From: Eledone cirrhosa
Lineage: Eukaryota
DNA length: 64,000 bases
Assembly: GCA_964016885.1 (NCBI GenBank)
Contig: OZ024740.1
Span: 25,854,001 to 25,918,000, forward strand
Direction of reading: 5' to 3'
Below, one piece after another: positions 38,852-64,000 of the stretch; position 1 is the first letter of the stretch; each line of letters begins with the position of its first letter. A program made the position numbers and the translations under genes. The notes under the pieces are model-generated. The model did no database searches, was not told the origin of the DNA, and was given only the letters and a program-made list of their open reading frames with translations.

Positions 38852-39296
38852 ATATATATATATATATATATATATCAAGAAGACGCGTAGCCGATCTCAC
38901 GGGCTTTAAGTGCTGAGAATATAAAGTTAATATGAAGAATGATTTGCACATGCACAGAGATGCTATAAAATACCTGATAAAATCCTGGTTGAGAGAAGTT
39001 GCTATCTAGCAGTATTCGGGAGTTATGGGTTCCAATACGTCTTAGTAGACGCTGGCAAGATTTCCTTCCATCTTTTATGGTTCGTCAACTTATTTTATAA
39101 GCTATCGTGTAGCATCTCTGCACACGAGAACATCATTGTTTATATGTATATAATAAAAATAAAATGTTCGCTCTACATGGCTGAATACAATAAATGTAAT
39201 CTGAGTTTTTCGAATATTAATAATAACATTCGATTCGTTTGCAATTATGCAAACAAGCCTTAATGTTATAGCCATATTCGCAAAACTCAGATTATA

Positions 39297-39610
<314 letters not shown>

Positions 39611-39632
39611 TACACACACACATATGAATATA

Positions 39633-39678
<46 letters not shown>

Positions 39679-39913
39679 TATATATATATATATATAATTA
39701 AGTTAAAGTGTACATCTACATATGTATACGGAAGTATTAGTATGCATATAAATACACACATGTATACATATGTACATGTACTCAGCTTTTCACTAGACAC
39801 TTTACAGTGAGTGTCAGCTAGTCTGTATGTAACCACACAGACGGACCGGGTTTTAGAGTCATACGGGTTTTCAAGGAAACACATTTCCTCTATTCTCCAG
39901 AGGGCCAGACAGG

Positions 39914-39958
39914 AATATTGGACTAGTTTCGATGTTATTACATCTCATCAGCAATATT
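39914..39958 (-). ncRNA. Minimal type I hammerhead ribozyme (inverted copy of 40634-40678)
   Basis: Exact reverse complement of 40634-40678. Confidence 0.92.
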
Positions 39959-40633
39959 TACCCATCTTCCGGCTTCTCTGGAGAATTGTAAAAGCACATA
40001 TCGTTATATGCTTTTTCTATGAAAATTAGTAGTGGGTAGACTAATTTGCATAGAACGTGAGTCATTGTACGCACCGGTTCAGCGGAAACGATAAAAACAA
40101 ATAACGAAACGAAATTAAATTTCGTTTCGCTTCTAACTCACTTTTGTATGACTGACGCTTAAACAATTAAGTTAAAGTGTACATCTACATATGTATACGG
40201 AAGTATTAGTATGCATATTGCTCTGGAGAATAGAGGAAATGTGTTTCCTTGAAAACCCGTATGACTCTAAAACCCGGTCCGTCTGTGTGGTTACATACAG
40301 ACTAGCTGACACTCACTGTAAAGTGTCTAGTGAAAAGCTGAGTACATGTACATATGTATACATGTGTGTATTTATATGCATACTAATACTTCCGTATACA
40401 TATGTAGATGTACACTTTAACTTAATTGTTTAAGCGTCAGTCATACAAAAGTGAGTTAGAAGCGAAACGAAATTTAATTTCGTTTCGTTATTTGTTTTTA
40501 TCGTTTCCGCTGAACCGGTGCGTACAATGACTCACGTTCTATGCAAATTAGTCTACCCACTACTAATTTTCATAGAAAAAGCATATAACGATATGTGCTT
40601 TTACAATTCTCCAGAGAAGCCGGAAGATGGGTA

Positions 40634-40678
40634 AATATTGCTGATGAGATGTAATAACATCGAAACTAGTCCAATATT
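40634..40678 (+). ncRNA. Minimal type I hammerhead ribozyme, intact core
   Basis: Stem I AATATTG/CAATATT, CTGATGA (40641-47), stem II GATG-taataa-CATC, GAAAC-TA-GTC with palindromic ACTAGT. Predicted cleavage after C40671. Confidence 0.92.
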
Positions 40679-40980
40679 CCTGTCTGGCCCTCTGGAGAAT
40701 AGAGGAAATGTGTTTCCTTGAAAACCCGTATGACTCTAAAACCCGGTCCGTCTGTGTGGTTACATACAGACTAGCTGACACTCACTGTAAAGTGTCTAGT
40801 GAAAAGCTGAGTACATGTACATATGTATACATGTGTGTATTTATATGCATACTAATACTTCCGTATACATATGTAGATGTACACTTTAACTTAATTGTTT
40901 AAGCGTCAGTCATACAAAAGTGAGTTAGAAGCGAAACGAAATTTAATTTCGTTTCGTTATTTGTTTTTATATATATATAC

Positions 40981-41203
<223 letters not shown>

Positions 41204-41215
41204 CATATATATATA

Positions 41216-43417
41216 ACTTTGAAATGTTTTGGCCAGTATTGGCCCAGGCCATGTCTAACTTAATAGCACCACCTGGCGAAGTCTTTCAATTCAGGATTTG
41301 GGCACCATGGCCCATTCGAGAAGAGAATTACTGTTTGCGGAGACATATCCGGGTGTGGGTGGTTTGTCCGGGATTACTTGGAGGAATTTGTCCAAAGACT
41401 TCTTGAATTTTGTGTGGTCAGTTTCTGTTTTGACGTGTCCTGGTGTGATGTTGAAGAGAGCAGGGCCGATTGAGGTGAAATAATTGTGCCGTATTGTTGT
41501 TATGAGTTGCGATTTAGATTTTTGAATGGGACGGATAGCATGGGGCCCAAGCCTTGGGTGTATCTTGAAGGCGATGCCAACATCATTTGGGCAGTGATGA
41601 TGGAACATTTTCCACATCATGCAGATAATATAACGCTCACGGCGACGTTGGAGTGAGTAAAGTTTCAGGTTTTCTAATCGACCCCAGTAGTCAAGGTCTG
41701 ACATGCCATCTATCTTTTTCGTGATTGCCCTTTGAGGAGCTTCAAGTTTCATGATACTTTCTTTCGTGAGGGGAGACCACAGTGGACAACAGTATTCAAG
41801 GTGTGGTCGGGCAAAAGTAGAGAAGAGAAGGATAATGGTGCGGGAATCTCTCGACTGGAAGGTTCTGAGTATCCAGGAACACATTCTGCGGGCCATGTCA
41901 ACTTTGCTGTTTATATGCGTGGTCCAGCTTATGTTGCTGTCCACGGTTACTCCCAAGTCTCTGATGTTGTTAGATGCCACGAGAGTTTCCCCGGAGGGAA
42001 GGGAGTACGGGAGTTTCAGAGCATCCTCTTTTCCAAAGTGGATCAGTTCGAATTTGTCTTCGTTCAGTAACATGTTGTTCCTTTCTGCCCATTGGGTAAC
42101 AGCCAGTAGGTCTGACTGAAGGCTTATCCGGTCATCCACGTCATTGATGACCTTTTGGAGCTTGGAATCATCAGCGAAAATTTTAATGTTGCTGTGTTTG
42201 ATGATGTCAGTGATGTCATTAATATAGATGACGAAGAGAAGTGGGCCCAACACAGTGCCTTGTGGGACCCCACTACTGACTTTGGCTGGGCTTGATTTGA
42301 CTCCCTCAACTACAACATGTTGGGTTCTGTTTGACAGGAAGCTCTTGATCCACTGCAGCAGCTTTCCAGTGACACCAATATTGGACAGCTTTCTCAGTAG
42401 AATGTTATGATCAACCCTGTCAAAGGCCTTGCTGAAATCAAGGTAGATAACATCAGTGTTGGAACCCTCTCCCAAGGCTCTCAAAATGTCATCAAAGTGA
42501 TGCAGTAGCTGCGTCAGGCAATCCCTTCCATTACGGAATCCATGCTGGTTGGAGTTCAGCATATTGTTACTCTCAAGGAAGTGGGTCATTCGCGATCTCA
42601 CCACTCTCTCAAATACCTTAATGATATGAGAGGTGAGTGAGATTGGACGGTAATTCACGGCAAGGGATTTGTTTCCCTTTTTGAAAACTGGGACAACAGA
42701 CTGGGATAGAAGGTTTTCTGGCACATATCCAGCATCCAGTGAGTTCCGCCACAGATTGGCAAGAGGAGATGCAAGTTGGTGTTGACACGCCTTCAAGACA
42801 CAAGCAGGGAACCTATCGGGACCTACTGCTGAATTATGCTTGATTTCCTTTATTGCCGCCAAGACATCAGGGGCGCCAAACGTTATGTCCGATAAGGTGT
42901 AATGGGGAGTAACATCGCCGATACAGCCCAGATCGGCCATATCAGGATTGCTGAAAACAGAGCAGTATTGTTTCTGCAGTATCTCACCCATGGTTTTAGC
43001 ATTGTTTTGAAGAGTGCCATTTTCATCAATTAGAGGGCCAACAGTAGAGCCAGTGATTTTGTGTTTTTTTGCAAATGAAAAGAACACTTTGGGATTGAGT
43101 TTGATCTTCTCAATGGCCCAGGCCTCTTCAGCTCTTCTCTGATTGTTGATGAGGGACATTATGTTGTTTTGGAGGTTATGTTTTTTAATCTCTAGTGATG
43201 AAATGGCAGTCAAGTTGATGTGTTGCTGCTGACAGTATTTCAGCTTGTTGATTTTTTTGTTCGTTCTCTTAATTTTTCTGATGAGCGTTTTTCTATTTCT
43301 AGGGATTCTGCTCTTAGATTTGTTTATAGTTCTTAATGGGGTGTGTTTAGCACATATGTTTGTAACAGTGTCCACAAATGTCTGCCAGGACTTTTTGATG
43401 TTAGTGGGTGTATGAGT
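41216..43417 (-). mobile_element. 5'-truncated non-LTR retrotransposon (CR1-group LINE) inserted in (TA)n
   Basis: Intact ORF2 3' portion plus a ~75-bp 3' UTR ending in (TA)n. The 5' end abuts (TA)n and the endonuclease domain is absent. Confidence 0.92.
41291..43417 (-). CDS. LINE ORF2 reverse transcriptase, about 708 codons, 5'-truncated (the ORF-track start inside the TA repeat is spurious)
   Basis: Motifs [67 protein letters not shown]; no internal stops. Confidence 0.93.
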
Positions 43418-55649: not shown

Positions 55650-56930
55650 TAGATTTGGTTATTGGTGGTGTTGTAGGTGATGGTGGTTGTGTTGGTGGTG
55701 GCTGTTGTGTGGTTTGTTTCTAGTTGTGGTGGTTGTATTGGCGGTAGACTGGTGGTAGTGGTGGTGGTGTTGGTGGTGGTGGTTTTGTAGGTGATGGTGG
55801 TTGTGTTGGTGGTGGTTGTTGTGTGGTTTGTTTCTAGTTGTGGTGGTTGTATTGGTGGCAAATCTGGTGGTAGTGGTGATGGTGGTTGGTGGTGTTGTAG
55901 GTGATGGTGGTTGTGTTGGTGGTGGCTGTTGTGTGGTTTGTTTCTAGTTGTGGTGGTTGTATTGGTGGCAAATCTGGTGGTAGTGGTGGTGGTGGTTGGT
56001 GGTGGTGGTGTTGTAGGTGATGGTGGTTGTGTTGGTGGTGGCTGTTGTGTGGTTTGTTTCTAGTTGTGGTGGTTGTATTGGTGGCAAATCTGGTGGTAGT
56101 GGTGGTGGTGGTGTTGGTGGTGGTGGTGTTGTAGGTGATGGTGCTTGTGTTGGTGGTGGCTGTTGTGTGGTTTGTTTCTAGTTGTGGTGGTTGTATTGGT
56201 GGCAAATCTGGTGGTAGTGGTGGTGGTGTTGGTGGTGGTGGTGTTGTAGCTGATGGTGCTTGTGTTGGTGGTGACTGTTGTGTGGTTTGTTTCTAGTTGT
56301 GGTGGTTGCATTGGCGGTAGTGGTGGTGGTGTTGTAGGTGATGGTGGTTGTGTTGGTGGTGGCTGTTGTGTGGTTTGTTTCTAGTTGTGGTGGTTGTATT
56401 GGCGGTAGATTTGGTGGAAGTGGTGGTGGTGGTTGTATTTGTGGCAGATCTGGTGTTAGTGGTGGTGGTGTTGGTTGTGGTTGTGTTGTAGGTGATGGTG
56501 GTTGTGTTGGTGGTGGCTTATGTGTTGTTTGTTTCTAGTTGTGGTGGTTGTATTGCCAGCAGATCTGGTGTGTGGTGTTCGTGGTGGGGGTGGGGTGGTT
56601 GTATTGGTGGCAGATCTGGTGGTGGTGTTGTAGGTGTTGGTAGTTGTACTGGCGGCAGATCTGGGGCAATTGGTGGAGGTAGTGGTCTTGGTGGCAGATC
56701 TGGTAGCGGTGGAGGTGATGGTGGCATTGGTGGTTGTATTGGTGGCAGATCTTTAGATGGTGGTGTTGGTTGTATTGGTAGCAGATCTGGTGGAAGTGGT
56801 GATGGTCGTTGTATTGGTGGCAAATCTGGTAGTGGTGGTGGTGATGGAGGTATTGGTGGTTGTATTGGTGACAGATCTGATGGTGGTGGTAGTAGTGCTT
56901 GTGTTTCTGATGTTGGAGTTATTTATGATG
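55650..56930. repeat. GT-rich minisatellite: ~110-120-bp unit grading into shorter GGTGGTTGTATTGGTGGCAGATCT-based units
   Basis: TTTCTAGTTGTGGTGG recurs at about 55717, 55831, 55941, 56057, 56175, 56290, 56378 and 56532. Confidence 0.9.
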
Positions 56931-57410: not shown

Positions 57411-57523
57411 TATATATATATAAACGGAAAAAATGAAAGGAAATTTCATTTGTCACTCTTAGTGCGGCGGTTACTTAAATATAAGTATGTATACATACAT
57501 ATATGTATACAGACGTACAGTAG

Positions 57524-57572
<49 letters not shown>

Positions 57573-57578
<6 letters not shown>

Positions 57579-58518: not shown

Positions 58519-58618
58519 AGCGGAAAAATGAAAGGAAATTTCATTTGTCACTCTTAGTGCGGCTGTTACTTAAATATAAGTATGTATACATACATATATG
58601 TATACAGACGTACAGTAG

Positions 58619-58676
<58 letters not shown>

Positions 58677-59138
58677 CATGCACACATATATATATGTACG
58701 TATGGATTCACCGAACATTTATTATAATGCCCTGTGTGTTTGTAAACAAACATCCCGAATTAAGCCGTACAATGTCTAGCAACCATCGTTCCTCATTTGT
58801 TCAACACTGACAAAGGAGCGCTGTACAAGTTTCAAGCTTATTAGTTATCGTCAGCAACGTATACCTAAGTGCCAGATGATTGAACAGAAGGTACGCGTTG
58901 CTGACGATAGCTAATAAGCTTGAAACAAGTACAGCGTTTTTTTGTCAGTGTTGAACAAATGAGCAACGATGGTTGCTAGACACTGTACGGCTTAATTCGT
59001 GGTGTTTGTTTACAAACACACCGGGCATTATAATAAATGTTCGGTGAATCCATACGTACATATATATATGTGTGCATGTATATATATATATACATACTAC
59101 TGTACGTCTGTATACATATATGTATGTACGTATACATA

Positions 59139-59145
<7 letters not shown>
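58517..59145. mobile_element. Palindromic (head-to-head) PLE pseudo-LTR pair with one HHR per arm
   Basis: About 58575-58866 is inverted at about 58889-59145 around a ~22-nt spacer. The left arm has an extra ~58-bp tail (58517-58575). AATAAA lies downstream of each HHR. Confidence 0.82.
58895..58937 (+). ncRNA. Minimal type I hammerhead ribozyme (mirror copy on minus at 58818-58860)
   Basis: GCGTTG-CTGACGA-t-AGC-taataa-GCT-t-GAAAC-AA-GTA-CAGCGT. Confidence 0.75.
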
Positions 59146-59762: not shown

Positions 59763-59856
<94 letters not shown>

Positions 59857-60049
59857 ATAATAATAAATATGAAGACTAAAATCCAAAGAGGTCTCGATAA
59901 GGATAAATATATATCATATGTATAACAACCCTAGTGCAAATATTTATTAAAATAACAGATTTAAGTTTAAGCAAAGAATATATATATACATATATTCAAA
60001 GTTTTAACCAAGCATGGCCGCAGTCTAATGATTGGAAACCATAAAAGGT

Positions 60050-62229: not shown

Positions 62230-62416
62230 TTATCCCAGGTTCAATCGGGGGTAACTACAGTAAGTAAGGTACTCAATACATAGTAGAGTATAAATATCTA
62301 ATATAGAAATAGCTTCTACAGGCTTAGACCTGTTTCATTCCAGAGAGACCGTCAGGAAGCCCTGATGATTTCTCCCGAATAAAACAGTTCTAGTCCCGTA
62401 GAAGCCATTTCTATAT

Positions 62417-62417
<1 letters not shown>
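62226..62417. mobile_element. Short fold-back PLE remnant with degenerate hammerheads and a one-sided tail
   Basis: 62300-62356 is inverted at 62360-62417. Minus arm GGCTTC-CTGACGG...GAAAC-AG-GTC-TAAGCC; plus arm CTGATGA...AAAAC. Extra ~74 bp on the left. Confidence 0.6.
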
Positions 62418-62470
<53 letters not shown>

Positions 62471-62474
<4 letters not shown>

Positions 62475-62933
62475 TAAACGGAATAGAAAATGCTGACAAA
62501 TTGTTCACAGTTGAAAAATGGTTTAATTAGGAATAAAAGAGTATTAGTGATTGTATGGGTTAGTATTCAGTTGTGGTTTTAAGTTTTTAAGTTTTTACCG
62601 GTTGCGCATTTCTAAATGCTTTTCAAAAATAATTTTGAGATAGAGTGTCCGTGTTGTTTGCTCTGGTCTGATTAGTTTGGGGAATTCTACCTGTTTTTAT
62701 GTTAAAAAAGTGGCTCCAGCGTTACTTTGGTGTTGCAAAAATTCTTGTGGTCAAAACAATTTTGATTGGTCGGTAGAGGTCATGTGAATGTAAAAAATTG
62801 ATTTTGCGCCAAGACTGTTTTTATGTTAAAAAAGTGGCTCCAGCGCTACTTGGTGTTTGCAAAAATTCTTGTGGTCAAAACAATTTTGATTGGTCGGTAG
62901 ATGTCATGTGAATAAAAAATTGGTTTTGCGCCA
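62471..62933 (-). mobile_element. Inverted pseudo-LTR/3' UTR abutting the PLE RT, with a 124-bp internal tandem duplication
   Basis: CTGTTTTTATGTTAAAAAAGTGGCTCC occurs at 62691 and 62815. Variant HHR-like motif on minus at 62593-62630. Begins at (TA)n. Linkage to the RT is inferred from adjacency. Confidence 0.6.
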
Positions 62934-62934
62934 C

Positions 62935-64000
62935 GAATTCTGTGAACACATCACAAACTTCCCTTACCAACACTTGCACAGACAAAAACACAAGCCAAAC
63001 CTCAACAAGAAAGAATGGGAAGAATTAAATAGATTAAAAACCGACAGAACCATTACAATTAAAGAGGCTGATAAAGGGAGTACAGTAGTCCTAATGGAGA
63101 CAGAATTCTATATCAACTTAGCGCTCTCCACTTTGGAAAACGAAACATACTACGAAAAGGCTGAACACTACAATCAACAGAAAATTATGAGAAACCTAAA
63201 AACTCTAATCAGCCAATACAAAGAAGGACTCACTAACAAGGAATTCAGCTTCATCACAGACTTCACAAGTAAATACAGCCTTTTCTACGGTATCCCTAAA
63301 GTACATAAAAGCGAATCAATAAGTAAGGCATGCAAGGAAGCCACAGACATAGTCATCAATGTCCCCTCACCCAATGATCTCAAATTAAGACCTATAATAG
63401 CAGGCCCCGCTTGCGAAACGCGCCGTCTTAGCAACTTCATTGACACCCTTCTCAAACCCTTCCTCAAGAACATCAAAAGCTATATAAGGGACGACCTAGA
63501 TATGCTCAATCACCTCCCTAATATGCCACTTTCTGAACAAACCCTACTAGTGACGTTCGATGTAGTCAAACTATACTCCAACATCCCCCACAACCTAGGA
63601 ATAGAAGCTATCCAATTCTGGCTGGATAATTTCCACAATGAACTCCCACAACGCATCAAAAAAGAATTCGTGATAGAGGGACTCAAATTTATCTTGGAGA
63701 ACAATTACTTCGTTTTCAATAACAAACCCTACAGGCAGAAATCTGGGACTGCTATAGGAACGAAAACAGCCCCCACTTATGCCAACCTAGTCATGGGATA
63801 CCTGGAAATCACCCTCTACACTAAAGTCCTAAACAAATTTGGAAACACCCTCCACTTACACATTGAAAGGAACTGGAAGCGATATCTAGATGACTGCTTC
63901 ATCCTTTGGCACGAAAACATCGAAAAACTTAAAGAATTTCACACCCTTATAAATGGGCTCAACATGAATATTAACTTCACGATGGAATACAGCCATCAAC
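62935..64000 (+). CDS. Penelope-like element reverse transcriptase (probably Neptune-type), 5'-truncated, running off the window
   Basis: Hand translation of frame +1 shows no stop from 62890 to 64000: NLNKKEW, IKEADKGSTVVLM, FYGIPKVHK, LRPIIAG, TFDVVKLYSNIP, NYFVFN, QKSGTAIG, APTYANLVMG, WKRYLDDCF (YLDD at 63883). Confidence 0.93.

Follow-up and report, generated by a model that had tools for sequence, protein, structure and literature searches.

The window analysed here, a stretch of 64,000 nucleotides of the Eledone cirrhosa genome (contig OZ024740.1), contains a (TA)n tract into which two copies of a 469-nt unit are inserted head-to-head. Outer 3' ends in this family lie at one of two sites, termed A and B. 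The features of the locus are as follows.

39628..39696, no strand: left (TA)n target tract
39696..40218, minus: left arm, 523 nt (1.12 units), its outer 3' end lying at fixed site B and its inner 5' end truncated
39914..39958, minus: hammerhead of the left arm, same as that of the right arm, read from the sequence and by a sub-threshold Rfam match
40219..40220, no strand: join TG, 2 nt, untemplated, separating the 5' ends of both arms
40221..40970, plus: right arm, 750 nt (1.60 units), its outer 3' end lying at fixed site A
40451..40535, plus: predicted pairing, around end A, between GTGAGT (40451-40456) and the following unit's ACTCAC (40530-40535)
40502..40970, plus: complete 469-nt unit, in the register from which unit positions 1-469 are counted
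40538..40576, plus: predicted hairpin with ATGCAAAT, conserved in the related family R2
40634..40678, plus: type I hammerhead, predicted cut after C40671; motif read from the sequence, Rfam match sub-threshold
40811..40882, plus: predicted AT-rich hairpin just before end B; analogous hairpin in R2
40897..40970, plus: tail of 69-74 nt from end B (~40896-40901) to end A (40968-40970), with hardly any variation among subfamilies
40930..40958, plus: predicted hairpin just before end A; similar hairpin in R2
40968..41215, no strand: right (TA)n target tract

Both arms are 100% identical to the unit (36.9% GC). The exact matches of 523 and 750 nt confirm the earlier note, which had described identical head-to-head copies, 1.1 units on the minus strand and 1.6 on the plus strand, within (TA)n. 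The unit is non-coding, as that note also held: the longest methionine-started frame in the circularised unit is only 64 aa, and the RT and GIY-YIG ORF of an autonomous Penelope-like element (PLE) was not found at the locus. There are 0 differences within the locus and 0 from two other loci, L035 and L050, which supports the proposal of a recent event; the window insertion is a very recent copy of the 469-nt family. In a look-up of sequencing data no RNA data set was listed as containing the stretch; parts of it are present in 7 runs from 4 studies, 4 of the runs having at least half of its words, and these carry no weight as evidence of expression.

Each arm carries one hammerhead, giving one per strand at this locus. 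In the right arm, stem I is formed by 40634-40640 and 40672-40678, the core by CUGAUGA (40641-40647) and GAAA (40662-40665), stem II by the 5 bp of GAUGU/ACAUC and helix III by the palindrome ACUAGU. An Rfam search, as previously proposed, recovered the motif as Hammerhead_HH9 (E=1e-5, 31.8 bits), though below the gathering score of 52. At the gathering threshold Rfam gave 0 matches within the window, and low-scoring matches to miRNA families were rejected as arising from AT-rich hairpins. A short palindromic helix III is described as the usual metazoan type I form, which works as a dimer (PMC4209133). The description of the motif as an intact minimal type I hammerhead is correct as to the intact core and the type, but not as to "minimal": the motif is canonical metazoan type I and not a min-HHR in the sense of PMC4209133. 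Because each arm has a single hammerhead, the window locus cannot release a monomer by two cuts. With one hammerhead per strand it does not count as an "active" retrozyme, whereas many other loci of the family do; the window locus is a daughter copy of a genome-wide family. Several further recurring hammerhead-like motifs, from different repeat families, are present in loci L189-L415.

Other repeats occupy much of the window. Positions 1-33758 are a 21-bp tandem array of 1,583 copies with a strong strand skew, which reads as Thr-rich repeats on the minus strand and in which every frame is broken every few hundred codons. A nested GGT-rich repeat at 55663-56900 is Pro/Thr-rich in the minus frames. 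A LINE-type RT frame (41291-43400, minus; RVT_1 E=2e-31) adjoins the right TA tract, and a close copy of it abuts an arm of the 469-nt family in L039. A short repeat at 39190-39290 recurs beside L065 and L130; a common short word connects it to the 469-nt unit in L065, and it is possibly an older relative. The sequence upstream in L065 was considered as an ORF and rejected, as it is another repeat.

A genome-wide family with two fixed outer ends

When the 3.0-Gb genome was searched with the unit, 39 of 729 candidates yielded 405 scored matches. Hits of the hammerhead pattern numbered 3,283, a count that takes in a few copies of a related family, versus 0 for a reversed control; the family is therefore not a product of chance. 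End A followed by TA occurs in 2,132 copies genome-wide, and end B followed by TA in 831 (forward strand only; reverse-strand counts include overlaps). The family is present at about 2,000 places in the genome. Subfamilies are ~86 to 100% identical and all retain the unit form, with 8 representatives 89-100% identical to the window unit. Arrays reach ~30 units, and the largest locus seen (L336, L337) spans 14.6 kb. Insertions sit inside (TA)n, where a target-site duplication cannot be read. Two pairs of insertions, L061/L062 and L141/L142, were duplicated together with their flanks and lie 7 and 18 kb apart, as local segmental duplications.

Outer 3' ends lie at unit positions 466-469 (A) or ~390-402 (B), which are 298 and 225 nt past the predicted cut site, respectively. 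Inner ends, unlike these fixed ends, are scattered truncations. The earlier note had anticipated copies in permuted registers. The genome-wide search for copies and their end registers revealed the large family, but two fixed outer ends in place of random registers. Since the outer ends are fixed family-wide and inversion is standard for PLEs, including the ORF-bearing ones of this genome, the argument that two different permutations record reverse transcription around a circle fails as stated.

The two ends are paired within insertions. A set of 66 fetched loci comprised 38 best-hit loci and 28 in genome order, with L061 and L142 dropped as duplicates and L135 as a member of another family. 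Two head-to-head arms are present in 47 of the 66; by type there are 39 A+B, 1 A+A, 0 B+B, 7 with one odd end, 18 one-armed and 1 complex (L036, an A+B locus parsed as complex). The sole A+A locus mixes two subfamilies. A position-only test, which used the 82 A and 66 B ends listed for C1 as far as 97 Mb and partly overlaps the 66-locus set, gave A+B in 39/40 head-to-head neighbours (p=2e-11 versus independent choice among the listed ends); the B+B pair reflects one insertion nested in another (L153). Of the listed ends, 68 are unpaired, and 53 of these were newly fetched. Among these 53, the other type of end was found with a full arm at 17 and with a mini-arm at 10, and the same type at 0. 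The remaining 26 run straight into TA (10), into other sequence (6) or off the fetched stretch (6), or were unparsed (4); thus 16 have no recognisable partner. The ORF-bearing PLEs of the genome behave in the same way, with 35/35 distinct head-to-head pairs in four families combining a long and a short end. It is likely that one arm is primed at A and the other at B. A literature search found neither counts of end pairing per insertion nor pairing in a retrozyme, although Arkhipova 2006 and Evgen'ev and Arkhipova 2005 may state it. The near-obligate A/B end pairing is the new element of the finding.

The RNA of the unit is predicted to fold strongly. Circular minimum free energy z-scores for three units (25 shuffles each) are -16, -13 and -11 on the plus strand and -11, -7 and -6 on the minus strand. 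Of the pairing that makes up 16 helices, 94-100% is kept by the 8 representatives; four of the helices contain six compensatory pairs in all, counts that relatedness inflates. The predicted GTGAGT/ACTCAC pairing, seen by eye in R2 as well, encloses end A, so that this start site would be internal to the RNA. The ATGCAAAT of the hairpin at 40538..40576 is presumably an octamer with a putative promoter role. R2 is an older family of about 420-500 nt with 1,464 candidates, and has the hairpins, the hammerhead and the head-to-head A+B form in common with the 469-nt family. R2 is a distant relative of the 469-nt unit. The window itself has an R2 copy at 58520-59140, whose two arms lie head-to-head within (TA)n, carry a hammerhead each and finish at an A-type and a B-type end respectively, and a short R2 fragment with an A-type end at 57430-57575.

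Relation to retrozymes and Penelope-like elements

The family resembles metazoan non-LTR retrozymes, as described by Cervera and de la Pena 2020 (PMC7229834) and Li et al. 2026 (bioRxiv 10.64898/2026.07.22.740005), in its non-coding tandem units of less than 50% GC, its thousands of copies, its strong predicted fold and the presence of PLEs in the same genome. In a further likeness, each unit has a single hammerhead of type I whose helix III is short and palindromic. The earlier assignment to the non-LTR retrozymes therefore stands, based on tandem 469-nt non-coding units with a type I hammerhead each in arrays of up to ~30. Retrozymes form RNA circles, and PMC7229834 gives a unit size of 150-450 bp; Li et al. 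2026 give 51-972 bp and propose a PLE origin. The suggestion that the unit is longer than typical animal retrozymes holds for the first range, which it just exceeds, but not for the second, within which it falls. Head-to-head arms and two fixed ends distinguish the present family from the retrozymes as set out in these two accounts.

The manner of insertion is that of PLEs, which are described as leaving an inverted 5'-truncated copy and a tail that is often one-ended, with a bias for (TA)n (PMC8557442; PMC3846280; PMC8969392). PLE-type features are present here in the inverted 5'-truncated copy, the two fixed 3' ends and the microsatellite target. The likeness to EN+ PLEs (PMC8557442; Arkhipova et al. 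2013, PMC3846280) extends to the one-ended tail, tandem copies and microhomology joins, and (TA)n is also the target of the Hydra and Naiad clades (PMC8557442). Because inversion, a one-ended tail and a (TA)n target are known PLE marks, the retrozyme has very likely been moved by PLEs, as the earlier note had supposed, and the 469-nt element can with considerable confidence be regarded as non-autonomous. The element is, on the evidence of its sequence, a new young non-LTR retrozyme family with PLE insertion marks. Unlike EN+ PLEs as described in PMC8557442 and PMC3846280, the retrozyme lacks an ORF, has arms of many units and has a tail of 69-74 nt versus 30-40 nt; four measured ORF-bearing PLE families of this genome have tails of 88, 40, 39 and 146 nt. 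The one-ended tail is optional or frequent in the EN+ PLEs of those sources, whereas it is near-obligate in two-armed retrozyme loci. Craig et al. 2021 (PMC8557442) call the origin of PLE inversions and tails undefined.

The closest experimental parallel is Poseidon of Anolis, PAc (Frangieh et al. 2024, PMC11167929), a PLE reported to have two internal RT start sites, to cut and extend both strands and to act as a predicted dimer. Like PAc, the retrozyme has two fixed starts downstream of the hammerhead and internal to the RNA, an AT-rich target and extension on both strands. The PAc starts lie ~90 nt past the cut and inside the ORF, in contrast to 225 and 298 nt past it in the retrozyme; the bulk PAc data reveal no strand difference in start site, whereas the retrozyme pairing is seen per insertion. 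Among non-autonomous elements, the MRC1-type Chlamys elements (PMC8557442) are likewise PLE derivatives, often multicopy and head-to-tail. They generally share 3' sequence with autonomous families, and Chlamys are described there as mostly without hammerheads.

A partner PLE was sought among six families of the genome: Hydra-like families from L064 (30 loci), L055 (25), L044 (25) and the L138 flank (29), a 900-aa RT+GIY-YIG family (30 loci) and a Neptune-like family (25). The labels Hydra-like and Neptune-like come from PMC8557442 motifs compared with translations, together with Pfam, and not from a tree. No terminal sequence common to the unit and an ORF-bearing PLE was found in these six families, with at least three more families seen in the genome; this differs from the 24/57 Xenopus retrozyme families that match known elements, nearly all PLE termini (Li et al. 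2026). Matches between unit and PLEs were rejected as terminal homology, being separate neighbouring insertions. A few loci are mixed. In L136/L309 (C1, 41.49 Mb) an A arm and a Neptune-like arm that terminates at its short end lie head-to-head, with no TA and a 41-nt inverted retrozyme piece between the two arms; the Neptune-like arm is 99% like its nearest copies. L154 is mixed with a Neptune-like long end, and in L138/L310 and L365 retrozyme B arms adjoin inverted pieces of a single Hydra-like family with no TA at the joint. L136 hints at a Neptune-like partner and at events that involve two RNAs, but a later insertion accompanied by deletion would account for it just as well, and each of L154, L138 and L365 could be such an insertion. 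Because later insertion explains the mixed loci and no more were found among the 53 unpaired ends, neither the Neptune-like nor the Hydra-like family is claimed as the partner. No canonical hammerhead was found by regex in the young Neptune-like family. At 62471-64000 the window has a head-to-head Neptune-like PLE that is 96-98.5% like a young family in which many 784-aa frames are intact. Two Hydra-like PLE families have left terminal fragments in the window, at 59851-59979 and at 62238-62420.

The RNA template and alternative explanations

The preferred reading, to which a probability of roughly 0.6 is assigned, is that the locus is a recent head-to-head insertion of the retrozyme into (TA)n by a borrowed PLE RT-endonuclease, primed at A and B, probably from a circular RNA. 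Of 98 inner ends, 1 falls no more than 5 nt from the cut site (unit 171), versus 2.4 expected, and this scarcity counts against a cut linear monomer as the template. Arms run on through the ribozyme site and are longer than such a monomer would give in 48/54 A arms and 52/52 B arms, in a sample of loci chosen for a hammerhead or full unit that favours long arms; shorter arms exist. Variants private to a locus, among 66 sampled loci mostly picked for a full unit or hammerhead, occur in both arms in 27 of 29 cases and in every covering unit in 22, which suggests one template per insertion. The absence of 5' ends at the cut site and the fixation of variants across both arms provide separate, indirect support for circularity. 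Tandem and inverted copies also occur among the ORF-bearing PLEs here, and so multi-unit arms need no small circle. A circular template is somewhat more probable than not.

The foremost alternative is that the parent array is transcribed into a linear multimer which serves as the template without being cut; paired priming would be the same, unequal exchange would maintain long arrays and circles would be by-products. The arrays are not pure repeats of one monomer: across 51 loci, 39 minor alleles occur in some but not all units of a locus versus ~5 expected (a rough estimate), 9 of the 39 span both arms, and L068, L155 and L157 have period-2 to period-6 variant patterns. These partly shared variants agree with multimeric templates, although later array turnover could also give them. 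The scarcity of inner ends at the cut site fits a multimer equally. Moreover, the anole PLE in vitro uses mainly uncut RNA and does not need its own hammerhead (PMC11167929), and 8/9 Xenopus retrozyme dimers are reported without cleavage (Li et al. 2026). Against a multimer, variants in L155 are shared without exception by the 18 units that cover them, in one arm and the other, while 270 singleton changes (51 loci, 269 units) are unshared, pointing to a monomer bottleneck, and the hammerhead core is intact in 8/8 subfamily representatives, two of which have a compensatory A-U to U-A swap in stem II. A linear multimer appears unlikely, if still a serious competitor of the circle.

It is improbable that the unit is merely the pseudo-LTR of a further ORF-bearing PLE and the arrays its debris. 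Every insertion mark is PLE-like, the Xenopus families matching PLE termini (24/57; Li et al. 2026) offer a precedent, and the comparison covered six of the genome's PLE families. However, units in arrays of up to ~30 join unit to unit, no non-unit sequence recurrently extends the unit in ~120 fetched loci, and the subfamilies keep the unit form at 86-100% identity. The earlier note had named a pseudo-LTR origin as an outcome that would overturn its proposal, and these results speak against that origin.

The inner joins bear on whether the inversion arose by self-priming or fold-back on an antisense template, a hypothesis in PMC3846280, or by later palindrome formation. Join calls from BLAST coordinates at 47 inversions gave 25 with an overlap of 1-7 nt, 2 blunt, 2 overlapping at hairpins and 18 with 1-60 nt between the arms. 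Three joins lie inside hairpins or palindromes (L032, L033, L034), as fold-back would allow. It predicts mirror joins, but 42/47 are not mirror-like and 5/47 are; it also predicts like outer ends, but 39/40 differ. The inner ends of B arms lie at unit 1-141 in 27/45, an excess that may reflect locus selection. The joins fit end-joining of two independently primed cDNAs and not fold-back, which is very improbable.

The unit is small, non-coding, hammerhead-bearing and predicted to fold strongly, as would be expected of a viroid-like replicon, an RNA that multiplies autonomously and is now and then copied into the genome by reverse transcription. No ribozyme was found on its opposite strand by sequence reading or Rfam, however, the predicted fold is branched and not rod-like, and there are ~2,000 insertions in graded subfamilies together with the older relative R2; the label "viroid-like" is unsupported and such a replicon hardly credible. 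Inverted repeats in (TA)n are hard to assemble, but the end rule recurs at scores of loci that differ in length, join and variants, leaving an assembly artefact with next to no likelihood.

Proposed mechanism and significance

Under the preferred reading of a borrowed PLE machinery and a probably circular RNA, source arrays with several units would be transcribed and their paired hammerheads would cut the RNA to monomers, which would be ligated into circles. A PLE protein dimer would bind the structured region around the tail and cut both DNA strands, and one cDNA would be started at each of the sites A and B. Each cDNA may circle the template a variable number of times before host end-joining links the two cDNA ends, and arrays would change further by local duplication after insertion. 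A more specific and tentative proposal, at somewhat less than even odds, is that asymmetric PLE dimers must use two different start sites, one per break end, and that both RTs roll simultaneously round one hammerhead-made circle, in a double rolling-circle target priming. L1 twin priming offers a comparison. In that process, two primers from one break yield an inverted 5' part and a microhomology join, and the cDNAs cover adjoining, non-overlapping parts of one linear RNA, with a variable second start. The proposed route is alike in its two primers at one break, its inversion and its microhomology join, and unlike in that the retrozyme starts are both fixed and the arms overlap in content.

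As an element, the 469-nt unit is one more animal retrozyme family. It provides insertion-level evidence for PLE machinery moving a retrozyme, where the account of Li et al. 2026 used co-occurrence and terminal homology, and its ~2,000 small insertions give counts that bear on the origin of PLE inversions and tails. End pairing, at 39/40 in the retrozyme and 35/35 in four ORF-bearing families, predicts paired use of start sites per molecule. This prediction suits the existing in vitro PLE system, and a 469-nt template is easily made linear or circular. If true, double rolling-circle target priming would explain the tail, the head-to-head inversion and the ready-made tandem arrays of PLEs and retrozymes.
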